Assembly: GCA_965207275.1 (NCBI GenBank)
Contig: CBDBMH010000002.1
Location: 465,291-529,290, forward strand
DNA from: Dehalococcoidia bacterium
GTDB taxonomy: Bacteria > Chloroflexota > Dehalococcoidia > Lucifugimonadales > UBA3495
Reading direction: 5' to 3'
DNA: 64,000 bases
The notes under the pieces: generated by a model
Seen by the model: the letters and a program-made list of their open reading frames with translations, nothing else
Databases searched by the model: none
What the model was told of the DNA's origin: nothing
Made by a program: the position numbers and the translations under genes
Part shown: piece after piece, positions 35,247-51,346 of the stretch
Layout: every line of letters starts with the position of its first letter
How positions within the stretch are numbered: position 1 is the first letter of the stretch

Positions 35247-35529
35247 ACCCTTGCCTACCGAATACTTCCCGGCTACAGCCCGAATCTATAAACAGATTGC
35301 CCTGCTGTACCTTGCTAGACAATGGTAAACCCTGTTGTTAAGATTGTTCTACTCGCTCTCAATCGGTTGCCATAACAGGTCGCCGGTATCCTGGCTCTCG
35401 CCTTCAGCATCCTCGGCATGGCGGTGGATGGGCAGCCTTTCGTCGGTAGGTAGCGCCCTCACACTCCACACTCCGTGGACCTGCCTGTCGGGACACAGCC
35501 ATATTTCCGCGCCTTTGGGGGGATTTCCG

Positions 35530-37656
35530 ATGCCACAGCTCACCCGTTGGATAACTGTACTAGCCCTGGTCACATTGCTCACCCTCCTCCTTGCCTGCAC
35601 CAGGCAGGTGGAGGTGGTCAAGGAAGTTCCTGTAGAGGTTGAAAGACAGGTTACCGTCGAGGTGGAGCGAGAGGTACCGGTAGAGGTGGAGAGGCAGGTA
35701 ATGGTGCAGGTCGTGGCTACTCCCACTCCTGGCCCGGCTCCACAGGTTGAACTGCCCCGCCAGCCCCAGGCCCAGCCCGTTGCCGGTAGCGAGCCAGCGC
35801 AAGCGGCCCCGACCCAGGTTCCGCCTCCCCCGCCGCAGCCAACAATCGCGGCAATGGTTGACGACGTAGAGCGAATCTACAAGATCGGCATTTCCGAAGA
35901 CCTGACTACCACCAACTACTGGGCCTATCTGGGTCCGGACGGCACCATCTGGAACCTGTACGTACTGAGCGGCAGCAAGCCTTCCCTCTATTCCTACACC
36001 AGCCAGACTTTCGATTGGGTCCCATCCCTGGCCTCCGACTTTCCCACCGCGTTGCTCGAAGAGACCGTGGACGGAGAGACCCTTTGGACCACGGAAGTGC
36101 CTCTCAAGCAGGGCGTAATGTGGAGCGACGGCACGGAGGTAACTGCCGAGGACTTCGCCTTCACCGCCAATACCGCCAATGAACTGATGCTCACCGGCAA
36201 CTGGCCCGGCATAGTGGACCCCGAATACTATCATCACTCCGAAGCCCTTGACCCCTACCGCCTGAAGATTTACTTCCAGAAGAAACCCGGCCTGGCCCGC
36301 TGGCAGTTCGGCCTCGCCTTCATGCCCATCTTCCCCAAGTCCTATTGGGAACCGGTGGTCGCCGAGGCAAAACAGGCCGGTGAACTGCCGGAACAGCATA
36401 AAGTCCTCTTTGCCCACGTTCCCGAGGGAGAACCCACCGGCGGCCCCTTCGGCTTCGATAAGTGGGAAAGGGGCGCCTTCGCCGAAAAGACCCGCAATGA
36501 CGACTACTATTTCCGGGGGGCCACGTCTACCCAGTACGACAATGGCGCTTATGTTGAGACCAAGCCCGGGGTCTACGAATTCGCCGCCTTCGGTGAACCT
36601 GCCGGCGAAGTCGCTCTCCAGACTATCCAGGGCCCCAACGCCAGCAGTTCCATCTATTCCGTTTACGGCAGCCAGGATGCCACGGTCCTGGCCCTCAGGA
36701 AGGGCGACATCGATTTCATGCTCAATCCCCTCGGCCTTTCCAAGGGCCTACAGGAGCAACTGGAAGGCGCCGAAGGTCTCACCACCATCTCCAACTCTTC
36801 CGATGGCGTCCGCTACCTGGGCTTCAACTTCCGTCGCGAACCCATGAACGACAAGGCATTCCGTCAGGCCGTGGCCACCCTCATTGACAAGGAATTCCTC
36901 ACCCAGACCGTCCTCCAGGGCGTCGCTATCCCCGTCTATGCCATGGTCCCCAACGGCAATGCCGCCTGGTACAACCCCGACGTGCCCCAGGTTGGCAAGG
37001 GCCTTACCCGGGCCGAGCGCGTGGCCCATGCCGTCCAAATGCTCAAGGAGGCCGGCTTTACCTGGGAAGTGGAACCCCGCGTCAGCGAAGACGGCCGGTT
37101 CGTCGAACAGCAGGGCGAGGGACTCAGGATGCCCAACGGCGAACCCATCCCGGAGATGACGGTCCTGGCGCCCAGCCCGGGCTATGACCCTCTCCGTTCG
37201 ACCTTCGCTATATGGATTGAACGCTGGCTGACCGAAGTCGGGATCCCCCTTCGAGCCGACCTCACGGGCTTTAACCTCATCGTTGATAAGGTGTTCAACC
37301 AGCAGGACTTCGATATGTGGATCCTGGGTTGGGGCCTGAGCCTCTACCCCGACTATCTTGAGGTTTTCTTCCACAGCCGGTACTCCGACCTGGAAGGATA
37401 CAATGCGGGAGGATACAACAACCCCGAATTTGACCAATTGGCCGACGACCTGGTGGCGGAAACCGACCTGCAAAGCGCCCGGGACCAGGTCTTCCGCATG
37501 CAGGCCTTCCTGGCCGATGACCTGCCCTACGTTACCCTGTTCACCACCCCCATAGTGGAAACCTACCGCAGCGACAAGATTGAGTTTCCCTACACCGATA
37601 ATCTGGGCGGCCTTCAAAACGTAGCCGGCATGCCATCCCTGGTCAGCTTCAAGTAA
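35530..37656 (+). CDS. ABC transporter substrate-binding lipoprotein, family 5 (peptide/nickel type)
   Basis: Start is at ATG 35530. The signal and lipobox are 'LALVTLLTLLLAC', followed by a repetitive linker and a large SBP_bac_5-like body. Two permeases and two ATPases follow. Confidence 0.85.
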   Translation: MPQLTRWITVLALVTLLTLLLACTRQVEVVKEVPVEVERQVTVEVEREVPVEVERQVMVQVVATPTPGPAPQVELPRQPQAQPVAGSEPAQAAPTQVPPPPPQPTIAAMVDDVERIYKIGISEDLTTTNYWAYLGPDGTIWNLYVLSGSKPSLYSYTSQTFDWVPSLASDFPTALLEETVDGETLWTTEVPLKQGVMWSDGTEVTAEDFAFTANTANELMLTGNWPGIVDPEYYHHSEALDPYRLKIYFQKKPGLARWQFGLAFMPIFPKSYWEPVVAEAKQAGELPEQHKVLFAHVPEGEPTGGPFGFDKWERGAFAEKTRNDDYYFRGATSTQYDNGAYVETKPGVYEFAAFGEPAGEVALQTIQGPNASSSIYSVYGSQDATVLALRKGDIDFMLNPLGLSKGLQEQLEGAEGLTTISNSSDGVRYLGFNFRREPMNDKAFRQAVATLIDKEFLTQTVLQGVAIPVYAMVPNGNAAWYNPDVPQVGKGLTRAERVAHAVQMLKEAGFTWEVEPRVSEDGRFVEQQGEGLRMPNGEPIPEMTVLAPSPGYDPLRSTFAIWIERWLTEVGIPLRADLTGFNLIVDKVFNQQDFDMWILGWGLSLYPDYLEVFFHSRYSDLEGYNAGGYNNPEFDQLADDLVAETDLQSARDQVFRMQAFLADDLPYVTLFTTPIVETYRSDKIEFPYTDNLGGLQNVAGMPSLVSFK

Positions 37657-37695
37657 TCTGTTTAAAGAGATGCTCGGCGTCAGGCTGACCCGTTA

Positions 37696-37736
37696 CCCCT
37701 TCCCCCTTGATGGGGGAAGGCTGGGATGGGGGCGAA
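37696..37736 (+). repeat. family-1 repeat copy
   Basis: CCCCTTCCCCCTTGATGGGGGAAGGCTGGGATGGGGGCGAA. Confidence 0.8.
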
Positions 37737-37788
37737 TACCCGGCCATTTTGGTGCCCCATAAGTGACAGGAGTCTTTGCAAGAGGTAG

Positions 37789-37838
37789 TGTCGCCCTGAG
37801 TCCGCCGCGGCGGACCGAAGGGCCTGAAAACTTGCCCG
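37789..37838 (+). repeat. family-2 repeat copy
   Basis: TGTCGCCCTGAGTCCGCCGCGGCGGACCGAAGGGCCTGAAAACTTGCCC. Confidence 0.8.
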
Positions 37839-37901
37839 GATATTCCCCACGGGCCCGCGAGAACAATTGGAAGGCCACGATAAAGAGAACGTGTGAATAA
37901 G

Positions 37902-37942
37902 TCCCTTCCCCCGTCGAGCGGGGAAGGTTCGGATAGATGTGA
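37902..37942 (+). repeat. family-1 repeat copy
   Basis: TCCCTTCCCCCGTCGAGCGGGGAAGGTTCGGATAGATGTGA. Confidence 0.75.
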
Positions 37943-37981
37943 CCGCCACACCCACCCATTCGTCAGGAGTTAGCCCCCAAC

Positions 37982-39133
37982 ATGACCGGTTACCTGGTCC
38001 GCCGCGCGGGACAAATGGTCCTCACCCTCTTCCTGATAATTACCTTCGCCTTCTTCCTGGTGCAGGCCCAGCCCGGCGACTACGCCACCTTCTACGCCCT
38101 GGACCCCGATATGCCTCCGGAAGTCAGGCAACAACTGCGCGCCTCCTTCGGCCTCGACCAACCATTGTGGCAACAGTACCTGATCCACCTCAAAAACACC
38201 GTCACCGGTAACTTTGGCGTTTCATTCGGCCATTTTCCCAGGCCGGTGATGGAAGTGTTGATCGAGCGGGTACCGCGTACGGCGGTCCTCTTCCTCACCG
38301 CCACCGTCATGTCCTTTTACGTCGGGTTCCTGCTGGGGAAGGCCATCGCCTGGCGCCGTGGGGGCGTCCTGGAGTACACCGCCACCATCTCCGGCGCAAC
38401 TCTCTTCACCGTATTCACCCCCGCCTTCGGTCTGATGATGATCTGGATCTTCGCCTTCCGCCTGGGCTGGCTGCCCGTGGGCAAGTTCCTGGATCCCCTG
38501 GTATGGCGCCATGCGGAAGTGACCGCCAACTTTGTTTTCAGCCAGATGCTGCTGACCGCCTTCCTCATTACCGTTTTCGCCTTCCTGACCATCTTCCTGC
38601 TGAGAAAAACCGGCCGCATCGGCCTGGCAAAGTGGGCGGGCCCCCTGATCGGGGCCGGCCTGGTCGTCGCCCTGCTGGTCTGGACCTTTTCCGGCATTGG
38701 TGGGCTGGCCCTGGACATCCTGCGGCACATGGTCCTGCCTATCGTTACCCTCACTCTGATCTCCTTCGCCGGTACCATGCTCCTCACCCGCAACAGCATG
38801 CTGGAGACGGTGCGCGAGGACTACGTGATGGCCGCCCGGGCCAAGGGTCTGCCGGAGAAACTGGTGCGCGATCGCCATGCTGCCCGTAATGCCCTGCTCC
38901 CCGTGGTTACCAGCCTGGTCTACAGCCTCATCTTCGCCATCGACGGCAGCGTCATCATCGAGGGAGTCTTTTCCTGGCCCGGCACCGGCCTCACCCTGCT
39001 GCAGGCCGTCCGCTCCGAAGACCTGCCCCTGGTCATGGGAGCCATGGTCTTCATCGGTCTCTTCTCCCTGCTGGCCCACGTCATAGTTGACGTTCTCTAC
39101 GTCTATCTGGACCCCAGGATACGCTACCAGTGA
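37982..39133 (+). CDS. ABC transporter permease (DppB/OppB-like)
   Basis: 383-aa ORF, multi-TM, with the EAA-type loop 'EDYVMAARAKGLPEKLVRDRHAARNAL'. Confidence 0.85.
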   Translation: MTGYLVRRAGQMVLTLFLIITFAFFLVQAQPGDYATFYALDPDMPPEVRQQLRASFGLDQPLWQQYLIHLKNTVTGNFGVSFGHFPRPVMEVLIERVPRTAVLFLTATVMSFYVGFLLGKAIAWRRGGVLEYTATISGATLFTVFTPAFGLMMIWIFAFRLGWLPVGKFLDPLVWRHAEVTANFVFSQMLLTAFLITVFAFLTIFLLRKTGRIGLAKWAGPLIGAGLVVALLVWTFSGIGGLALDILRHMVLPIVTLTLISFAGTMLLTRNSMLETVREDYVMAARAKGLPEKLVRDRHAARNALLPVVTSLVYSLIFAIDGSVIIEGVFSWPGTGLTLLQAVRSEDLPLVMGAMVFIGLFSLLAHVIVDVLYVYLDPRIRYQ

Positions 39134-40131
39134 TTACGCCGACCGATAATCCGCTCCTCTCGGGGCCCTCTTCGGAACCGCCGGTAATGGAGGTGGGCCA
39201 CAGCCGCCTTCGACTACTGCTGGCCAGGACCCGCCTGGCCTGGCACTCCTTCCGCATCGGCTGGTCTATATTCATGGAAAGCCGTATCGGCGTCCTTTCC
39301 CTGGTGATCATCTCCCTGTTTGCGCTGATGGCCGTGGCCCATCCCATTCTGATGTTCACCGTCTGGGACTCCGAGACCTACGACCCCGTAACGGGTTACG
39401 CCTTTGACCGGCTCGAGCAGCCGGCGCCGCCTTCCTGGAAACATCTCCTGGGCACAGATCCCCTGGGCCGTGACGTCCTGAGCCAGTTGCTCTGGAGCAC
39501 TCGTTCCGAATTCGTCCTGGGCATCACGGCGGCCCTGGTTACCGTCGCCATTGCGACCACCGTGGGCGCCGTTTCCGCCTACTATGGCGGTCTGGTGGAC
39601 GTCTTCTTCATGCGCCTGGCCGATCTGATAATCGCCCTGCCCGGCATCTCCCTGCTCATCGTGCTCAGCGCCCTCTTCAAGCTCAACCTCTTCTACCTGG
39701 CCCTGGTCATCGGCATCCTGGGCGGCTTCGGGGGCACCGCCATCATCCTCAAGTCCCAGGCCCTCAGCATCAAGGTCAAGCCCTACATCGAGGCGGCCCG
39801 GGTGGCCGGCGGCGGCCATTTTCACATTATCTTTGTTCACATAATCCCCAACCTGCTGCCCCTTTCCCTGCTCTACATGATGTTCACCGTTACCAGCGCC
39901 ATCTTCGCCGAGGCGGTCCTTTCCTTCCTTGGCCTCCTCGACCTCCGAATGAGCTGGGGCATTATGATTCACACGGCCAACACCGGCGGCTACCTGATGG
40001 GCGGCACCCGCTACTGGTGGTTGGTTATTCCGGCGGGCGCCTCCATCACCCTGCTTTGCAGCGCCTTCTACCTGGGCGGCCGCGCCCTGGACGAAGTGGT
40101 CAACCCGCGCCTGCGGCGTCGGCACGATTAG
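39130..40131 (+). CDS. ABC transporter permease (DppC/OppC-like)
   Basis: 333-aa ORF. Its GTG start overlaps the preceding stop. It carries the loop 'PYIEAARVAGGGHFHIIFVHIIPN'. Confidence 0.85.
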   Translation: MITPTDNPLLSGPSSEPPVMEVGHSRLRLLLARTRLAWHSFRIGWSIFMESRIGVLSLVIISLFALMAVAHPILMFTVWDSETYDPVTGYAFDRLEQPAPPSWKHLLGTDPLGRDVLSQLLWSTRSEFVLGITAALVTVAIATTVGAVSAYYGGLVDVFFMRLADLIIALPGISLLIVLSALFKLNLFYLALVIGILGGFGGTAIILKSQALSIKVKPYIEAARVAGGGHFHIIFVHIIPNLLPLSLLYMMFTVTSAIFAEAVLSFLGLLDLRMSWGIMIHTANTGGYLMGGTRYWWLVIPAGASITLLCSAFYLGGRALDEVVNPRLRRRHD

Positions 40132-40146
40132 GCCGGAAAGAAGACC

Positions 40147-41157
40147 ATGCAAGACACAACAACCGAACCGGTCCTCAAAGTCGCCGATCTCTCTCTCCGC
40201 TACCTCACCCGGGCTGGCGAGGTCAAGGCTGTTCAGGATGTCAGCTTCCAACTTGCCCAGGGTCAGGCCATGGGCCTGGTGGGTGAATCCGGGTGCGGCA
40301 AGACCTCCGTCGCCAACTGCCTGATGCGCCTGCTGCCCGACAACGCCCTACTGCTCGGGGGCCAGGTCATCCTGGGCGGCCAGGACATCGCCGCGCTGTC
40401 CGAGGAGGAGATACGGGAATACCGCTGGAGCCGCATTGCCATGGTCTTCCAGGCGGCCATGAACTCCCTTGACCCGGTCTACCGTGTCGGCCAACAGGTG
40501 GTGGAGGCTATTGAGGCCCACGGGGTTGAATCTACCCTTTCCGATGCCAGGGATCGGGTGGCCCGCCTGTTTCGCATGGTTGGCCTGGACCCCGCCCTGA
40601 TGGACCGCTATCCCCACGAGTTCAGCGGCGGAATGCGTCAGCGCGCCGTCATCGCCATGGCCCTCTCCTGCGACCCCTCCGTCATCATCGCCGATGAACC
40701 CACCACCGCTCTCGACGTTATCGTCCAGGACCGCATCCTGCGGGAGCTGAAGGCCATCCAGCAGCAACTCAATATGGCTATCATTTATATCAGCCACGAC
40801 ATCGCCGTTGTCGCCGAGGTCACCGACCGACTCGGCGTGATGTACGCCGGCCGCCTGGTGGAGTACGGCGAAACCGCCGACGTTTTCCGCGCTCCCCTGC
40901 ATCCCTATACCTCGGCCCTCATGGGTTCCTTCCCCAGCATTACCGGCGAAAAACGGCCCCTGGCTAACCTCTCCGGCGAGCCGCCCAACCTCATCGACCC
41001 GCCGCCCGGCTGTCCCTTCCATCCCCGCTGCCTTCATGCCACCGACCAGTGCCGGACCGAGTTCCCTCCCCGGGTTTGGCGCGGCACCCAGTGGGCCGAC
41101 TGCTGGCACCCCCTGGACGAGGGCGAATCCACGCTGGCGCAGGAAGGAGTTGTTTAG
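40147..41157 (+). CDS. ABC transporter ATP-binding protein (DppD/OppD-like)
   Basis: Walker A 'GESGCGKTS', signature 'FSGGMRQR', Walker B 'VIIADEPTTALD', and an oligopeptide-type C-terminal extension. Confidence 0.9.
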   Translation: MQDTTTEPVLKVADLSLRYLTRAGEVKAVQDVSFQLAQGQAMGLVGESGCGKTSVANCLMRLLPDNALLLGGQVILGGQDIAALSEEEIREYRWSRIAMVFQAAMNSLDPVYRVGQQVVEAIEAHGVESTLSDARDRVARLFRMVGLDPALMDRYPHEFSGGMRQRAVIAMALSCDPSVIIADEPTTALDVIVQDRILRELKAIQQQLNMAIIYISHDIAVVAEVTDRLGVMYAGRLVEYGETADVFRAPLHPYTSALMGSFPSITGEKRPLANLSGEPPNLIDPPPGCPFHPRCLHATDQCRTEFPPRVWRGTQWADCWHPLDEGESTLAQEGVV

Positions 41158-42204
41158 GTGCAACCCGCCCAGTCCTCAACCCGGATACTGGGGCCCGAAA
41201 CGCTGGTTTCCGCTTCCGGCCTGACCAGGCTATTCCCGGTGGGCCGCGGCTTCTTTCGCCGTACCACCAGCTTTATTCATGCCGTGGATGACGTTTCCTT
41301 CGATCTGGACCGGGGCGACAGTCTGGGCCTGGTGGGCGAGTCCGGTTGCGGCAAGACCACCGTGGGCAAGCTGCTGGTCAAACTGCTGGATCCAACCTCC
41401 GGCGAGATCCTGTTCCGCCTGCCTGGTCTGGAGACTGCCGGCGGCGATCCCACCGACCCGGTTGAAGCCTCCGCGATTGCCTCCGGTCAAATGCGGTCCT
41501 TCCGTAGACAGGCCCAGATGATCTTTCAGGACCCCTACGAGTCCATGAATCCCCGTCGCACGATCTACGACACCATCGCCGAACCCCTGGCCGTCCAGGG
41601 CATCGGCACCGTCATGGACCGGGTGGACATCGTTTCCGAAATCCTCATGCTGGTGGGCCTCACCCCGCCAGCCACCTTCCTCTTCCGGCACCCCCACGAG
41701 CTTTCCGGCGGCCAACGCCAGCGGGTCGCCATTGCCCGCGCCCTGGTGGTGGAACCCACCTTCGTGGTGGCCGACGAACCAACCTCCATGCTGGACGTTT
41801 CCAGCCGCACCGGCATCATGAACCTGATGCAGCAACTGGCCCACGGCCTGGGCATCGCCTACCTGTACGTCACTCACGACCTGGCGGTGGCCCGCTACAT
41901 GTGCCACCGCATCGCCGTAATGTACCTGGGCAAGATCGTGGAAATCGGCGAGACCGAGGAACTGTTGCGCAACCCCCTTCATCCCTACACCCGCGCCCTG
42001 CTGTCCGCCGTTCCCGTGCCCGATCCCCAACACCGGCGCGAACCTCCCCACATTCTCGGCGACCTCACCGCGCCCATCGACCCGCCCGACCGGTGCCGAT
42101 TCTACGATCGCTGTCCCCTGGCCACCGACCACTGCCGCGACAACCCGCACCCGCCAACCGAGGAGAAGGGCCCCGACCACTGGGCAGCCTGCTACCAGGT
42201 CTAG
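41158..42204 (+). CDS. ABC transporter ATP-binding protein (DppF/OppF-like)
   Basis: Walker A 'GESGCGKTT', signature 'LSGGQRQR', Walker B '[12 protein letters not shown]'. Confidence 0.9.
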
Positions 42205-42823: not shown

Positions 42824-42853
42824 CGAAATAGGGGCTGCCATCATGGCAGCCCC
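42824..42853 (-). terminator. rho-independent terminator downstream of the ZnuA-like gene
   Basis: GGGGCTGCC-atcat-GGCAGCCCC forms a 9-bp perfect stem and is followed on the minus strand by TATTTCGTT. Confidence 0.6.
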
Positions 42854-42909
42854 TCAGTTGGCTTGCGTCCGTCCTGAGCGGGACAATCCCGCCCGAACAT
42901 TGGTCGAAA

Positions 42910-45396
42910 CTAGTGCAGCGCCTCCACGATGGTGCTCACGTTGTAGCGCATGAAGTCCAGGTAATTTCCTGCTTCACCGCCTTCTTCGCCCAGCGAACCG
43001 GTGTAGAGCGTGCCCACCAACTCCGCCCCCGTCTCATCAGCAATCTGGCGGGCCAGCCGGTCAGATGCTTGCTTCTCTGCAAAGACGGCCTTCGTGCCCG
43101 AGTGCTCAATGGCTTCCACCAACTCGGCCAGATCCCGGGCCGAAGCCTCTACCTCGGTGGTTATGGACGGGATTATGGCCCCCACAACTTCGAAATCGTA
43201 GCGCTGGGCAAAGTACTGGTACGCGTCGTGGTTGGTTACAATCAAGCGCTGGTCGTGGGGGAGGACGGCTACCTCGCCCTCGATCCAGCTGTGAAGCTCG
43301 TCCAGCTGCGCGCTGTACGCCGCCGCATTGTCCCGGTAGAAGGTCTGCCCCTCCGGGTCCAGGCCCGAAAGGTAGGCGGCAATGCTATTCACTGCCACTT
43401 TCACCCTGATGGGGTCAAACCAGAAGTGGGGGTCATGCTCGCCGTGGTGGTGGTCGTGGTGTCCGCCCTCTTCCATATGCCCGGCCTCACCATGCCCGGC
43501 CTCCTCGTGGTCGTGGCCCTCCTCTTCGTGCCCCGCCTCCTGGTGGCCTTCCGTTTCACCATGGATGCCTACAAAGGCTATCTTGGTCGGATTGCCGGCT
43601 ATGTCCCAGTGGTCAACCTCTTCCAGGTCATGATCATCCAGTTGCAGGACATGCCCGCCCACCGAGTCGGTCACGAAGATGGCTCCCGGCGCCATGGCGA
43701 TGTGCGGCCGACCCCAGAACCCGGTTTCCACCGGCGTGGTCAGAGCGTCGCTGTTGGTGGCAATTATGTCCCCGTCGTGCAGGTCATAAAGTCGAATTTC
43801 TCCGCTGCTCATTACAACGACCGCTTGTTCCCCGTCCCGGGAAAGGGCTGCCTGAATGGGTGAATTGCCCTCTACGGCGTCGATCAACTGCTCCATTTCA
43901 CCCTCTTCCGGTTCCACTAGGTACAGGCCCACCGCCGAACCCAGGGCAAGGAAGTGGTCTGATCCTGAGGCGGCCCAGACCGTGGTCAGCCGGAAGTCTT
44001 CCGGTTCCCCTTCGGGCGCCGAAATGAAAGAGTGGTGGAAATGGCCGTGGTCAGCCTCCACCGCCAGCACGCCGCCAGCACAGCCGAATACGGCAATGTG
44101 GCCATTGCCGGCGTCCCCGTGCAGGCTGGGGCAGTCTCCGGCGGAGTAGAGGATGTTTCCGGCGAGGTCGCGTATGTCAACGGTGATGGGCAGCCGGTAC
44201 TGTTCCGGGTTCGACGCATAGTCGGGATGCTGCGGCGTGATGGCAAACAGGTCGTGTGCCAGGGGTACTGCCGCCCCATGCTGCGGTCCCGCGTTTTGAA
44301 TTACCGGCTGATAACTGGCGCCCTCTTCTTCCAGTTCGTGCTCGTTAATGAGCGCCACGTCTCCCGAACCGTCGTAGTAAATGGCCGCCCACTCGTCCCC
44401 TACGTACAGGTGGACGGGCCGGTCGCCCGACAAGTCCAGCCCTATCGGTTCGGCTTCCCCGTTCACCAGGTCAAAATGCCCTTCGTGGGGTTCCAGGTAG
44501 GTGCCCCCGTCAATGATGTGCACCATGTTGGCGTCGGAGGCCACCGCGATGGCGAAGCGGCCGCTCTTGGTGGCGTAAATGCGCCCGGCCCGGCTCCCCA
44601 TGTCAAAGGCGTTTTGCTCCACGTGGCCGTGGTCCAGTTCGATGATGGACATGTCGCCGGTCTCGCCGTCGCCGATCAGCAGTTTGCCCAGCAGTGTGGT
44701 CATTTCCTCGTGGCCGTGCTCGTCATGGCCGTGCTCCTCGTGACCATGTTCGTCGGCGTGCTCATCGCCGTGGTCGTCATGGTGGTCCTCAAATAGCTCC
44801 ACGAAGTCGATGGGGTCAACTTCTTCCCCAATTTCCACTATCGCGTGGGGATCCCTGGCTGCATTTTCCACCAGGTCCGTCAGCCACCCCGCCTCCAGCG
44901 ACAGTCCGATGCTCAACACCAGGTCAGCGTCAGCTACCTGGGCTATGTCCTGAGCGCCCGGCTGGAATGTGTGCGGATCGGCATTGGCCGGCAGCAAGGA
45001 AAATACCTCCACCCGGTCCTGCCCTACGGCACGCACCCAGTCGCCCATAATGTTGCTGGTGGTAACCACCCTGACTTTTTCCACTGCCGCTACCGGCTGG
45101 GCGGCCGGCGTCGTATTGGTGGCCTGGGCCGGCGCCGTTACCTGGGGTTGCGCCGCCGCTGCCGGCTGGGATGCGGGCGAGGCGCTCGCCGCCGGCTGAC
45201 TCGCTGGTTGCGCCGCTGCCTGGCTCGCTGGTTGCGCCGCCGCCTGGCTTGCTGGCTGGGCGGCCGGTTGCGCTGCGGCCTGACCTGCCGGCTGGGCCGC
45301 CGGCTGCGAAGCCGGTTCCTCACTGCTGCACGCCACGACCATCAACAGGGTGGCGGCCAGCATTGGAATCAGAATTTTGAGTAACTTTCCTGGCAT
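42910..45396 (-). CDS. ZnuA/TroA-type metal-binding lipoprotein with a ~400-aa domain inserted at the His-rich loop
   Basis: The lipobox is 'LLMVVAC', followed by an 'AAQPASQ' repeat linker. The ZnuA N-lobe reads 'VVTTSNIMGDWVRAV...ANADPHTFQP'. Next comes a His/Asp/Glu tract 'HHDDHGDEHADEHGHEEHGHDEHGHEE', an insert of about 400 aa, then a second tract 'GHQEAGHEEEGHDHEEAGHGEAGHMEEGGHHDHHHGEHDPH'. The ZnuA C-lobe reads 'FWFDP...VTNHDAYQYFAQRY'. Confidence 0.8.
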   Translation of the reverse strand: MPGKLLKILIPMLAATLLMVVACSSEEPASQPAAQPAGQAAAQPAAQPASQAAAQPASQAAAQPASQPAASASPASQPAAAAQPQVTAPAQATNTTPAAQPVAAVEKVRVVTTSNIMGDWVRAVGQDRVEVFSLLPANADPHTFQPGAQDIAQVADADLVLSIGLSLEAGWLTDLVENAARDPHAIVEIGEEVDPIDFVELFEDHHDDHGDEHADEHGHEEHGHDEHGHEEMTTLLGKLLIGDGETGDMSIIELDHGHVEQNAFDMGSRAGRIYATKSGRFAIAVASDANMVHIIDGGTYLEPHEGHFDLVNGEAEPIGLDLSGDRPVHLYVGDEWAAIYYDGSGDVALINEHELEEEGASYQPVIQNAGPQHGAAVPLAHDLFAITPQHPDYASNPEQYRLPITVDIRDLAGNILYSAGDCPSLHGDAGNGHIAVFGCAGGVLAVEADHGHFHHSFISAPEGEPEDFRLTTVWAASGSDHFLALGSAVGLYLVEPEEGEMEQLIDAVEGNSPIQAALSRDGEQAVVVMSSGEIRLYDLHDGDIIATNSDALTTPVETGFWGRPHIAMAPGAIFVTDSVGGHVLQLDDHDLEEVDHWDIAGNPTKIAFVGIHGETEGHQEAGHEEEGHDHEEAGHGEAGHMEEGGHHDHHHGEHDPHFWFDPIRVKVAVNSIAAYLSGLDPEGQTFYRDNAAAYSAQLDELHSWIEGEVAVLPHDQRLIVTNHDAYQYFAQRYDFEVVGAIIPSITTEVEASARDLAELVEAIEHSGTKAVFAEKQASDRLARQIADETGAELVGTLYTGSLGEEGGEAGNYLDFMRYNVSTIVEALH

Positions 45397-45706
45397 CTGG
45401 TTTTCCTCCCACTAGAGTGTTTGTTCCTGGTCCATATTGAGAATCAATCTCTTTTCAAGTCGCTTAACTCTGACCGGCGCTGATGCAGCAAATTTTGAAA
45501 CTTACAATCACTTGTCTTTTGCCTCTGGTAAGCAAGAGCATGCCTATCCTCGCCAACTATTTATACTAAATCTCAATAATAATGCGGAAAGAACTTTATA
45601 TCAATTGATAATGCCTTTGTCAATACTTGATCGCAGTTGGGCAGCGTCCCCTATTGGGTGGTTGGGAGGCCGCATTCGCATAGGGCTGCCCCATTCGGAC
45701 CTGTCC

Positions 45707-45795: not shown

Positions 45796-46292
45796 GCGCC
45801 CCGCTCTGTACTGGGCTCCGGCATGTACCCGACCACTGCCAGCTATTCCCCCATGCGAAGGACGGGATTTGCCGGGTATCCAGGCAGTTCCCGACCGGGG
45901 TCCGGCGACCTGCACAGGACCCTTCACACCTCGGCTGACTTTCGGGAGTGCGGCTGCCATGATTCATCCCTCCTGCCTCGTCATCGCCACCGCGGTTTCG
46001 GTTCCGTCACTGGCGTCTGTCGTCCGTGGCGCCGAGGCCGGTGATGGCCGCCCGTCGCCCACCTGCCTTCCTGGCTTCAGGGAATCGGTCAGCAGCGTCA
46101 GCGGGCCAGGCCTGCCAGCCCCCGTCGACTCCGTGACTCTCGGCAATTCCCCAAACTGGAATCGGGAGATCGAGGAGTATCGTTCCCCCTCCGGAGCCGC
46201 GCCCAGTTTCAAGAACCCCCCGTTTAGCTTGAGAGGCGCGATCCCGACCCAGGCTTGCTGGCCTGGCCCGTTGCCGAAATGGGACTTTGCTG

Positions 46293-46793
46293 ATGCGTGA
46301 AGAGAGAATTGCGGCGACGGCGTGGCGGTTGCGGGCCGCCCTGCTATGGCTGGTCTTTATCGGGATAGTGGGATTGGCCGTCATATTGGCCTTTGAGCGG
46401 CACTGGGACGGCTACTGGCAGTTGGTGCCCTGGGCGGTCCTGGGCCTGATATTTTTCTCCTTTATGGCCCTGGTGCTTATCCCGTCCTCTGCCACCAGGA
46501 ACCTGGCCCATCTGGTCGCCGCCGCCGCCATAATTTCCTCCTGCCTGGGCCTGTGGCAGCACTTTGACTCGAACTACGAGGCGGCATCCCGCGCCTCCAA
46601 TTACGCCCAGCGCTGGGACGATATGGGCCTTGTTGACCGGGTATGGGAAGTTGCCTCTGGGTCGGTGGGCGACGTTCCCATCTACGCGGCTGCAGCCCTC
46701 ATCCCCATTGCCCTCGCCTTGTCCATGTGCACCATCGGCATCGGTCACCGCGATAGTCCCGACGAATACGTGGACCCTCGCCAGCGCCGCTAA
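46293..46793 (+). CDS. hypothetical membrane protein (about 4 TM)
   Basis: Hydrophobic segments include 'LLWLVFIGIVGLAVILAF', 'VPWAVLGLIFFSFMALVLI', 'LVAAAAIISSCLGLW' and 'IYAAAALIPIALALSMCTI'. The start is ATG 46293 or TTG 46287. Confidence 0.6.
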   Translation: MREERIAATAWRLRAALLWLVFIGIVGLAVILAFERHWDGYWQLVPWAVLGLIFFSFMALVLIPSSATRNLAHLVAAAAIISSCLGLWQHFDSNYEAASRASNYAQRWDDMGLVDRVWEVASGSVGDVPIYAAAALIPIALALSMCTIGIGHRDSPDEYVDPRQRR

Positions 46794-51025: not shown

Positions 51026-51105
51026 CTGCCTAACGACCCACCACATGTACCGCGCCACCCGGCGCCGCGCTTGCTTTTACTGACACTACCCACAACGACA
51101 CGGGA

Positions 51106-51139
51106 GAGCCGGATGCGGTGAAAGCCGCACGTCCCGTTC
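51106..51139 (+). ncRNA. group II intron domain V-like hairpin (probable intron remnant)
   Basis: GAGCCGGAUGCGGUGAAAGCCGCACGUCCCGUUC has the AGC triad with a G.U pair, a GAAA tetraloop, an AC bulge and the 3' ...CGUUC, in the canonical 34-nt layout. It has one C.C mismatch and one compensatory pair relative to the textbook consensus GAGCCGUAU...ACGUACGGUUC. Confidence 0.4.
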
Positions 51140-51346
51140 GGAAGCAGGCCGACGGAAAAGCGCTCCGCTAATGCGGGGTAACTCGCCGGTGGTCTACCTT
51201 ACTCGTGGTAAGTCGGATTAAGCGCCCGGCCGCGCAGAGGTATCCGCAGGCGGGACCTCCGCCCTCGGCAGGCGGGAACCTCGAACCTGGCAGCCGGCTT
51301 TGTATCCCTCGCCGAATTTGTAGGGGTCCGCCTCCGGCGGATGGCT

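Follow-up and report, generated by a model that had tools for sequence, protein, structure and literature searches.

The closest solved relatives of both parts of the protein described here are AztC and AztD of the AztABCD system (Paracoccus denitrificans, PDB 5w56/5w57 and 6ck1; Citrobacter koseri AztD, PDB 6cmk), which are known as two separate proteins. The zinc hand-over from AztD to AztC is known only through mutagenesis and a docking model; in Paracoccus it is bimolecular, and the complex then dissociates. A flexible loop of AztC is needed for zinc transfer from AztD and was modelled entering the AztD pore, which places site 2 of AztD about 10 Å from the AztC site (PMC6689063, PMC7463823). 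Asp279 of AztC was proposed to complete the transfer and to trigger release (PMC6689063, from which the AztD and AztC ligand roles used below are also taken). A related arrangement is AdcA of Streptococcus (PDB 7jj9), in which a cluster A-I zinc substrate-binding protein (SBP) is covalently fused to the zinc-recruiting domain ZinT in a Gram-positive-type lipoprotein; PMC7858048 and PMC6689063 present this SBP-ZinT fusion with the logic of a zinc hand-off in cis.

Within the window, i.e., the whole 64-kb stretch of DNA that was analysed, one gene encodes an 828-aa protein that is predicted to be an AztC-type cluster A-I SBP carrying an AztD propeller inside its flexible His-rich loop. This fusion is unannotated in hundreds of Chloroflexota genomes. 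No earlier description of an AztD-SBP fusion was found in the literature searched, which covered papers available without subscription.

Domain architecture of the fused protein

The gene and the parts of its product were delimited as follows.

42910..45396, minus strand: complete gene for the fused 828-aa predicted lipoprotein, stop codon included (ORF list; Pfam and NCBIfam matches)
45328..45396, minus strand: signal peptide with lipobox, aa 1-23, MPGKLLKILIPMLAATLLMVVAC (A22 and C23 invariant in 116 homologues)
45085..45327, minus strand: low-complexity Ala/Gln/Pro/Ser linker, aa 24-104 (composition A33, Q15, P14, S9 of 81 residues)
44788..45084, minus strand: SBP N-lobe, aa 105-203, including His142 (= AztC His61; alignment to AztC 5w56)
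44704..44787, minus strand: His/Asp/Glu tract 1, DHHDDHGDEHADEHGHEEHGHDEHGHEE, aa 204-231 (10 His in 28 residues)
43543..44703, minus strand: AztD-family eight-bladed beta-propeller, aa 232-618 (NCBIfam AztD; phmmer; Foldseek; ligand conservation)
43438..43542, minus strand: His/Glu/Gly tract 2, QEAGHEEEGHDHEEAGHGEAGHMEEGGHHDHHHGE, aa 619-653 (10 His in 35 residues)
42913..43437, minus strand: SBP backbone helix and C-lobe, aa 654-828 (alignments to AztC)

The reading frame begins with ATG, and a GGAGG ribosome-binding site lies 8 nt upstream. The earlier note had described an 828-aa ZnuA-type protein with an insert between two His/Asp/Glu-rich tracts; this was borne out by the ORF and by a Pfam ZnuA match (PF01297; 277.8 bits, cut-off 29) that falls into two stretches with the insert between them. 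Both tracts and the internal motifs LDHGHVEQ, EPHEGHFDL and ADHGHFHH are present as quoted there. The insert, put by the note at about 400 aa of beta-rich sequence, comprises 387 aa and is all-beta in an AF2 model of the protein (pLDDT 82.6, pTM only 0.57). The best NCBIfam matches of the protein were AztC (NF040870; E 3e-83, 279.5 bits, two stretches) and AztD (NF038015; E 9.2e-29, 100.3 bits, aa 247-609 against profile positions 7-354 of 356). Both scores are below the NCBIfam equivalog cut-offs (350 and 400 bits, respectively), yet AztC is the best-scoring family; the identity in Foldseek alignments is about 40% to AztC (C-lobe) and about 25% to AztD (propeller). With E-values between 1e-24 and 1e-83 in comparisons with curated models and solved structures, the fused architecture is far above chance level.

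At the N-terminus, Cys23 is the predicted lipidation site, an inference from the pattern [LVI][ASTVI][GAS]C. The adjoining linker is encoded by 12-, 24- and 36-nt tandem repeats, differs in length between homologues and tethers the predicted lipoprotein to the membrane. Unlike the periplasmic AztC and AztD, the fused protein would be lipid-anchored via a long low-complexity linker, as a monoderm-type surface protein.

The SBP portion is AztC-like in sequence and in predicted fold. A PDB sequence search with the flanks of the insert returned AztC (5w56/5kzj). When the insert was removed in silico, the SBP aligned without a break over AztC residues 4-283 of 286 (E 4.7e-47), and AztC was the top PDB match. 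The AF2 model shows the two alpha/beta lobes and long backbone helix of cluster A-I SBPs, with long helices at model residues 562-610 (aa 662-710) and a pLDDT mostly of 70-97 in the N-lobe; the C-lobe superposes on AztC, PsaA and YfeA at an rmsd of 2-3 Å. The three His ligands of AztC, His61, His138 and His204, correspond to H142, H657 and H723 (the C-lobe residues were mapped by counting), so that both lobes contribute ligands at the inter-lobe cleft, and all three are conserved in 116/116 homologues. A Z-loop-like segment, SITTEVE, lies in the C-lobe part and may correspond to the Z-loop with which AztC closes over its zinc site. Unlike in AztC, where Asp279 completes a four-ligand zinc site, only the three His are kept: Asp279 is replaced by Gly800, without exception among the 116 closest homologues, and among 77 wider family members the position holds Gly in 58 and Asp in 6 and is deleted in 13.

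The insert was specifically AztD-like, and the refuting outcome named in the earlier note, a lack of structural similarity to metal-binding propellers, did not occur. A phmmer search with it returned the AztD chains 6ck1 and 6cmk only, and the nine best PDB fold matches of the AF2 model in Foldseek were all AztD (target-normalised TM 0.83-0.86), superposing at an rmsd of about 3 Å over about 383 columns with the eight-bladed propeller fold of 6ck1 and 6cmk. A generic WD40/PQQ propeller was rejected, because unrelated propellers reached a TM of 0.6 or less and the Pfam WD40_CDC20 match was sub-threshold (15.8 bits versus 200). Both zinc sites of AztD are present. Of 116 homologues, 115, 114 and 111 have kept the site 1 ligands H329, H373 and H426 (AztD H124, H167 and H218), respectively. 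The site 2 ligands H304, H307 and D309 (AztD H99, H102 and D104) are conserved in all 116, and H618, in a GETEGH motif at the propeller end, occupies the position of the AztD C-terminal ligand His408 and is at least 90% conserved. C422 and C439, found in 116/116 homologues, correspond to the AztD disulfide Cys214/Cys231 and form a predicted conserved disulfide of the propeller. Unlike its standalone relatives, the insert lacks a separate signal peptide; the closest standalone AztD (P0121) ends in ...KGH. Profile, phmmer, fold, ligands and disulfide thus all agree with the proposal of the earlier note that the insert is an AztD-equivalent, metallochaperone-like propeller. The further suggestion of a fusion in cis to an AztC-like SBP stood as far as the flanks are concerned, which are most like AztC, and was refined in its geometry: the propeller is inserted in the AztC transfer loop rather than joined end to end.

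The insertion point is the flexible loop (D-loop) of AztC, which engages AztD in Paracoccus. Whereas AztC and AztD are two proteins, here a single polypeptide carries the propeller within this loop, and the short AztC D-loop (residues 117-133, three His) is replaced by the tracts plus the propeller. Tract 1 (pLDDT below 50) is encoded by 15- and 30-nt tandem repeats and measures 10-40 aa over the family; it forms the disordered N-terminal tether of the insert and one half, the first, of the AztC loop that has been split; the N-terminal His-rich motif of AztD is its analogue. Tract 2 (pLDDT also below 50) is the disordered C-terminal tether and the second half of the loop, analogous to the C-terminal His-rich tail of CkAztD, to which it aligns. 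It terminates in an invariant H649-x-H651-G motif (H649, H651, G652) just ahead of the ligand His657.

Other SBPs with additional parts are less similar. ZnuA proteins that have a His-rich loop (E. coli, Salmonella, Synechocystis; 2osv, 2xqv, 1pq4) share the three-His site without Asp, a disordered His/Asp/Glu-rich loop in the same position and a motif of the H-x-H-G-E-x-x-x-H-x-W type that leads up to the second ligand, but their loops span tens of residues and hold no folded domain, and the similarity is far below that to AztC (NCBIfam, 102.8 versus 279.5 bits). AdcA differs in that ZinT, which has a lipocalin-like fold, is appended C-terminally, whereas the AztD propeller lies inside the loop here; the NCBIfam AdcA model (NF033605) matched only the SBP part (profile positions 136-322 of 517, 120 bits versus a cut-off of 700), and no ZinT domain match was found for the 828-aa protein in Pfam or PDB searches. 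The anchored-repeat ABC transporter SBP (TIGR03772) is another ZnuA-family SBP with extra domains, but its extra domain is N-terminal and unrelated to AztD, and the model matched only the SBP portion (155 bits versus a cut-off of 350). Some AztD propellers (P0123, P0133, P0146) are fused to repeat domains resembling the TIGR03772 system.

Distribution and genomic context of the family

The search for orthologues suggested by the earlier note returned the uninterrupted fused architecture for at least 120 protein clusters, with lengths of 739-849 aa and an identity of 58-90%. At least 580 genomic stretches from Dehalococcoidia, SAR202 and Caldilineaceae carry it, many of them on complete long-read chromosomes of 2-5 Mb. 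Family members are plentiful in Dehalococcoidia, SAR202 and Chloroflexota associated with sponges, organisms that often live in seawater poor in zinc. At present such proteins carry no more specific annotation than "metal ABC transporter substrate-binding protein", "ZnuA" or "hypothetical protein", and the propeller is missed because no Pfam model covers it. If the fusion were recognised, hundreds of genomes could be annotated better, and so could their capacity to acquire zinc.

In a neighbor-joining tree of propeller domains, constructed without support values, the fused proteins fell into two distinct groups, interspersed with standalone forms; the fusion may have arisen once or several times. 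An unfused ancestral operon was sought near the closest standalone AztDs (P0121 and P0124), and no SBP was found within 5 kb.

A Fur-family gene lies directly upstream of the fused gene in 52 of 80 loci examined. An ABC-3 permease gene follows downstream in 40 of the 80, together with an ATPase gene in 35 of these 40, and in a further 26 loci only a Fur-family gene adjoins the fused gene. The relatives thus resemble AztABCD, with an ATPase and an AztB-like permease after the fused gene and a Fur-family gene before it. The window locus differs: no ZnuB/ABC-3 permease, ZnuC-type ATPase or Fur-family gene was found within the 64 kb, and of the aztA, aztB and aztD genes that accompany aztC under Zur none is present. 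The absence of adjacent znuB and znuC genes remarked on in the earlier note consequently applies to the window copy but not to the many relatives that lie in operons. Operon linkage has been lost in a subclade formed by the window locus and loci L001, L002 and L005, and the window copy is a derived orphan paralogue that has kept an operator-like site in its promoter. Besides a window-type orphan, the L002 genome contains a copy in an operon that also encodes an AztB-like permease and an ATPase.

Proposed zinc hand-off and competing readings

Overall, the locus is probably best explained by a single-chain AztC-AztD zinc hand-off protein, with steps of transfer, transport and regulation. The propeller and the two disordered His/Asp/Glu tethers would capture scarce extracellular Zn(II). 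Site 2 (H304, H307, D309, H618), at the propeller base where the N- and C-terminal strands join the SBP, would be the transfer-competent donor, and about 30-40 disordered residues on each side would hold the propeller next to the SBP cleft. We propose that, because of this tethering, zinc passes intramolecularly, by ligand exchange from site 2 to the three-His acceptor H142, H657 and H723. The loaded SBP would then dock on an ABC-3 permease resembling AztB, with an AztA-like ATPase supplying the power, both presumably encoded outside the window; a bulky propeller beside the cleft could hinder this docking unless it swings away. Unlike their Paracoccus counterparts, the fused partners cannot dissociate. 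The fusion sets the donor propeller in the transfer loop of the acceptor, with the donor site at the junction. As a natural fusion, it provides independent evolutionary support for the functional relationship between AztD and AztC, and, as a single-chain 1:1 construct, it could be used to trap a transfer intermediate and solve its structure.

Because this lineage invariably lacks Asp279, the end-point of the transfer must differ from that of the Paracoccus model. With Gly in its place, zinc could come to rest in a composite inter-domain site, made up of the three SBP His and one ligand from the propeller base or from H649/H651 of tract 2. The propeller would then be an obligatory part of the metal site, and its displacement on the permease would act as a gate, letting zinc pass into the transporter. 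We consider this variant rather unlikely; if true, it would mean that an ABC-importer binding protein is gated in a new way, and the protein would be a transfer intermediate trapped by nature.

The hand-off reading takes zinc as the substrate. That the same architecture serves manganese (or Fe, Ni or Co), with an MntABC-type importer and a Fur/Mur-type regulator, appears very improbable. Deinococcus MntC was the second-best NCBIfam match of the SBP (E 1.3e-74, 251 bits), and TroA-type sites of three His and one Asp can bind Mn besides Zn; against this, the third SBP ligand, H723, is an invariant His of the zinc type, whereas Mn-specific PsaA and MntC sites have Glu, and the Asp required by Mn sites is missing (G800), leaving a ZnuA-like three-His site. 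The ATPase of the sister operon at locus L003 scored best with Deinococcus MntA (242 bits versus 189 for AztA), but its partner permease was closest to AztB. For the Fur-family neighbor, Fur and PerR models outscored E. coli Zur, with all NCBIfam matches far below the cut-off. The intact state of both AztD zinc sites, the Fur-family and ABC-3 permease genes next to many related fused genes and a CobW/COG0523 gene beside one distant fused member argue for zinc, as do the long His/Asp/Glu loops, which mark zinc specificity in A-I SBPs (PMC7463823).

We likewise give little credence to the possibility that the orphan copy has no role in transport and buffers, stores or scavenges zinc at the cell surface, or is a spare SBP without a cognate permease, in which case the propeller and His tracts would matter for capacity and not for directed transfer. 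The tracts carry about 20 His in addition to the three defined sites, and knock-outs of PdAztD pointed to periplasmic zinc accumulation rather than essential import (PMC6689063). The lost operon linkage of the subclade, the 64 kb around the window copy without transporter or Fur-family genes and the 26 loci with a Fur-family gene as the sole neighbor fit such a role. However, within the orphan subclade there is no variation in the three SBP ligands, the Z-loop-like segment or the overall SBP fold, a constancy that would be needless for a mere buffer, and an orphan SBP could share the transporter of an operon copy such as that in the L002 genome. AdcA and AdcAII offer a parallel, since they share AdcCB.

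Finally, a long ORF created by mis-assembly or sequencing errors from an SBP N-half, aztD and an SBP C-half, which the earlier note had named as a possible refutation, is practically negligible despite the unusual length and the error-prone short tandem repeats encoding the His tracts: the same uninterrupted ORF recurs throughout the family, long-read chromosomes included, half an SBP lobe would be unable to fold alone, the insert lacks the signal peptide of its standalone relatives, and the GC content is even across both insert junctions.

Promoter region and operator-like site

Upstream of the gene, the following elements were located.

45560..45623, minus strand: promoter/operator region (promoter scan; motif enrichment; footprinting)
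45618-45623, minus strand: TTGACA, within the promoter region
45599-45610, minus strand: palindrome TATCAATTGATA, within the promoter region
45604-45576, minus strand: promoter match TTGATA-17-TATTAT (promoter scan, 10/12)
45560-45576, minus strand: operator-like 7-3-7 site TTGAGATTTAGTATAAA (11/14 motif match)

The region is conserved as a footprint among the window locus, L001 and L002. An unbiased 8-mer enrichment yielded the motif TTGATAC-N3-GTATCAA, and this 7-3-7 motif occurs upstream of 54 of 81 fused genes, compared to 37 of 2175 background chunks. The site of the window gene is the sole match of at least 11/14 in the 64 kb; the window copy scores only 11/14, and its closest orthologues score 10/14. 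A Fur-family repressor, presumably Zur, probably acts on this type of operator over the promoter, and a candidate Fur-family operator motif is thereby gained for these uncultured bacteria. The perfect palindrome TATCAATTGATA, which overlaps the -35/-10 region and is kept in the closest orthologues only, was considered as the operator and rejected: exact and relaxed searches (ATCAnnTGAT) gave matches upstream of only 4 of 81 loci, and a spacing analysis of ATCA..TGAT gave nothing. Neither the 5′ nor the 3′ untranslated region gave a riboswitch or sRNA match in Rfam at E up to 1.

One further element was found downstream of the gene.

42830..42854, minus strand: intrinsic-terminator-like hairpin with an 11-bp stem, 8 GC pairs and a T-rich tail (terminator scan)

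This hairpin lies 56-80 nt past the stop codon and is a consensus match only, such matches occurring in the region at the frequency expected from shuffled sequence; its position after the stop codon hints at a monocistronic unit.

Domain layout and the propeller insert

The open reading frame (ORF) at 42910-45396 (minus strand) starts with ATG just downstream of a GGAGG and encodes 828 aa, in which the lobes of a substrate-binding protein (SBP) flank a long insert.

Layout of the fused protein (aa positions)
1-23: predicted signal peptide, lipobox MVVAC at its end
24-104: low-complexity linker of Ala/Gln/Pro/Ser
105-203: SBP N-lobe, ZnuA family
204-231: tract 1, His/Asp/Glu (10 His in 28 residues)
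232-618: insert, all-beta, 387 aa
619-653: tract 2 (10 His in 35 residues)
654-828: backbone helix and C-lobe

Checking the ORF sequence placed every feature quoted in the earlier note where it had been read. Residues A22 and C23 were identical throughout 116 homologues, and the Pfam ZnuA match (277.8 bits) was broken into two pieces. Among homologues, tract 1 spans 10-40 aa and tract 2 spans 19-66 aa; this wide variation, shared by the linker, fits the short tandem DNA repeats (periods of 15/30 and 12/24/36 nt) that encode the two tracts and the Ala/Gln/Pro linker (43438-43552, 44704-44787, and 45187-45315), and the length changes probably arise by slippage.

The earlier note had proposed that the insert is a propeller equivalent to AztD, the metallochaperone that serves the zinc SBP AztC in Paracoccus, and profile, sequence and structure matches bore this out. 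The NCBIfam AztD model aligned aa 247-609 of the fused protein with profile positions 7-354 of 356 (E 9.2e-29), and phmmer with the insert against all PDB sequences recovered only the AztDs 6ck1 (E 9e-25) and 6cmk (E 8e-24). AF2 modeling of aa 101-828 from a family alignment of 116 sequences gave a mean pLDDT of 82.6 and a pTM of 0.57, with pLDDT mostly above 90 in the propeller and below 50 in both His tracts. In a Foldseek search of the PDB, the nine top matches were all AztD chains (target-normalized TM, 0.83-0.86; rmsd, ~3 Å; ~383 columns; E 1e-24 to 4e-27), and unrelated propellers reached a TM of at most 0.6.

The ligand roles in AztD and AztC have been defined previously (PMC6689063). 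We mapped the ligands via the 6ck1 alignment and counted conservation over the family alignment of 116 homologues. Site 2 of AztD (H99/H102/D104), the sole site competent for transfer to AztC (PMC6689063), corresponds to H304/H307/D309, kept in 116/116 sequences. The site 1 residues H124/H167/H218 correspond to H329/H373/H426 (kept in 115/116, 114/116, and 111/116), and the disulfide C214-C231 corresponds to C422-C439 (116/116). The fourth ligand of site 2 in PdAztD is the C-terminal His408 (PMC6689063); its equivalent, H618, lies within a near-invariant GETEGH that closes the propeller. The closest standalone AztD, cluster P0121, is 60% identical to the Chloroflexota insert, has its own signal peptide, and ends in ...GKTKGH.

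AztC-like flanks and the insertion point

The flanks matched AztC best, both among NCBIfam families (279.5 bits) and among PDB sequences (P. denitrificans AztC 5w56, 5w57, and 5kzj). As a test of continuity, the insert was removed in silico and the flanks were joined through a short loop. The joined flanks formed one unbroken domain against AztC residues 4-283 of 286 (E 4.7e-47) and scored AztC above PsaA, MntC, TroA, YfeA, and ZnuA. By residue counts in the alignments (native AztC numbering), H142, H657, and H723 are the equivalents of AztC H61, H138, and H204 and were identical across the 116 homologues. AztC Asp279 corresponds to Gly800, unchanged in the 116 closest homologues; among 77 wider family members, 58 have Gly here, 6 have Asp, and 13 have a deletion, and the distant fused clusters have kept Asp or Glu. 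In the published AztC model, Asp279 binds last, displacing the remaining AztD ligands, and its binding triggers the closure that frees AztC from AztD (PMC6689063). Therefore, its loss constitutes the one tested metal-site departure from AztC.

The propeller stands in place of the flexible loop of AztC (D-loop, residues 117-133). The D-loop and its three His are needed for transfer, and a docking model places it inside the AztD pore, with site 2 ~10 Å from the AztC site (PMC6689063, PMC7463823). Since AztD site 2 is made of the N- and C-terminal strands and a hairpin (PMC6689063), the donor site falls exactly at both junctions in the fusion, and ~30-40 disordered His-rich residues per side tether it to the acceptor cleft. 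The tracts resemble a split D-loop and also the His-rich motifs that standalone AztDs have at their N and C termini.

That the protein combines an AztC-like SBP with an AztD propeller, placed within the transfer loop, is essentially certain. It belongs to the cluster A-I SBP family and carries an AztD-family domain but falls outside the AztC and AztD equivalogs in the strict sense, as it scores under their cut-offs; unlike AztC, it lacks Asp279 and has its D-loop replaced.

Distribution, gene neighborhoods, and proposed metal transfer

A word-indexed protein search returned 749 proteins at E <=1e-10. The best 120 of these were 638-849 aa long and 58-90% identical, mostly with 87-100% query coverage; PF01297 was their sole recorded domain, and no annotation went beyond "metal ABC transporter substrate-binding protein," "ZnuA," or "hypothetical protein." Scanning a single genome for each species confirmed at least 580 genomic stretches. 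The 80 that were retrieved came from Dehalococcoidia, SAR202-cluster, sponge-associated Chloroflexota, and Caldilineaceae metagenome-assembled genomes (MAGs), with two copies in some, and many lay on complete 2-5 Mb chromosomes, which rules out an assembly artefact joining separate genes.

An exhaustive search with the insert alone against 1.84 billion representatives yielded 551 AztD-superfamily clusters. Among the best 150, 126 were standalone (~400-470 aa, mostly 24-32% identical) and 11 had the N-lobe-AztD-C-lobe architecture. In P0125 (1216 aa), the SBP contains a tandem pair of propellers as its insert, and P0153 (2432 aa) carries four tandem AztD propellers. P0122 has a closely related propeller with SBP lobes that diverged differently, and the fused P0134 has lost all propeller metal ligands and kept the disulfide. 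In P0123, P0133, and P0146, the propeller is preceded by repeat domains that look like those of the actinobacterial anchored-repeat system. In a neighbor-joining tree of propeller domains, calculated without support values, the fused proteins fell into two groups among standalone ones. The standalone P0121 occurs in Deltaproteobacteria MAGs with no SBP nearby (locus L084), a hint that the propeller module may have been transferred horizontally or excised.

We found no description of an AztD-SBP fusion in the literature covered, which took in the main AztD papers and few subscription papers; the main papers mention only ZinT-ZnuA fusions and gene neighborhood association (PMC6689063, PMC7463823). 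The fusion bears on metal-transport biology and on the annotation of marine Chloroflexota.

For a context census, neighboring ORFs of the 80 loci were clustered into families, followed by tblastn refinement.

Same-strand neighbors of the fused gene at 80 loci
Fur-family gene alone (upstream): 26/80
Fur-family gene, ATPase, and ABC-3 permease: 21/80
ATPase and ABC-3 permease without Fur-family gene: 14/80
Fur-family gene and ABC-3 permease without ATPase: 5/80
None of the three: 14/80

In total, a Fur-family gene lay 100-500 nt upstream at 52/80 loci and an ABC-3 permease gene downstream at 40/80, accompanied in 35 of the 40 by an ATPase gene, which, where present, mostly begins 3-15 nt past the SBP gene. 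At locus L003, the permease was closest to AztB (204 bits, under the cut-off of 280), the ATPase was closest to Deinococcus MntA and AztA, and the regulator was a Fur-family protein to which NCBIfam gives no finer assignment. One distant fused member immediately follows a CobW/COG0523 gene.

Unlike the AztC/AztD pair, the fused gene of the window is not part of an operon, and neither an ABC-3 permease nor a ZnuC-type ATPase nor a Fur gene was found within the 64 kb.

Surroundings of the fused gene
35335-42204 (+): Opp/Dpp-type peptide ABC operon, convergent with the fused gene; encodes two permeases, two ATPases that have oligo_HPY domains, and a 773-aa SBP_bac_5 protein extended at length on its N-terminal side; syntenic in L081
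42205-42909: spacer on the 3' side, between the fused gene and the Opp ATPase gene; 705 nt versus ~118 nt in the syntenic orthologue L081; lower GC (~0.59); no match in an Rfam search
46287-46793 (+): predicted 168-aa protein without Pfam family, divergent upstream; syntenic in L081 (166 aa), with a similar-sized ORF family in 8 loci
51104-51202 (+): Rfam group II catalytic intron RNA (RF00029) at 45.8 bits (gathering score, 40), suggestive of an intron of group II, or what remains of one, ~6 kb from the fused gene

By sequence prediction, the gene is monocistronic, with a match to a promoter (TTGATA-17-TATTAT, 10/12) and, 56-80 nt past the stop codon, a hairpin that resembles a terminator. 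The synteny is the same around an orthologue of 73% identity, which lies on a 3.6-Mb chromosome. In the fused-protein tree, the window gene formed an orphan subclade with L001, L002, and L005, nested among operon-linked genes with L003/L004 as its sister; L003 and L002 share one chromosome. Thus, the window gene is best read as a relocated paralogue, and it probably shares a transporter encoded elsewhere. AdcAII similarly uses AdcCB in common with AdcA.

The third ligand His, the absent Asp, the His-rich loops, and the intact AztD zinc sites, together with the AztB-like permease and neighbors of the CobW and Fur families, argue for Zn(II) as the substrate; manganese, to which secondary matches to MntC and MntA point, is a minority alternative. 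Overall, we infer with good confidence that Zn(II) is the substrate and would be captured by the propeller and the tracts, passed within the molecule from site 2 to the 3-His site, and then delivered to an AztAB-like importer. The fused protein would work like AztD and AztC together, and it has a conceptual likeness to AdcA (SBP plus ZinT).

Candidate operator and leader

An unbiased search for 8-mers enriched upstream of the fused genes converged on a 7-3-7 inverted repeat, TTGATAC-N3-GTATCAA, which commonly occurs as 2-5 copies between the Fur-family and SBP genes. It was noted at 45560-45576 in the window and upstream in L003-L074.

Occurrence of the inverted repeat
Sites >=11/14: 54/81 upstream regions, 37/2175 background chunks of 600 nt
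Sites >=12/14: 32/81 upstream regions, 6/2175 background chunks of 600 nt

We regard the repeat as a candidate Fur-family (possibly Zur) operator of Dehalococcoidia. The site at 45560-45576 (TTGAGATTTAGTATAAA) was the only one in the window with at least 11/14 and lies at the -10/transcription start edge of the fused-gene promoter. This site, a TTGACA box, and a TTGATATAAAGT element are kept in the window, L001, and L002, with diverging flanks; their conservation suggests that the orphan gene may still belong to the same regulon. The ~165-nt 5' leader, for which Rfam gave no family match, contains weak operator-like sites (10/14) at 45431-45447 and 45495-45511, ~64-65 nt from one another and from the main site. 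At about -50 lies a further conserved element, ATTGAyTCTCAAT, which L001 shares and L002 retains in part.
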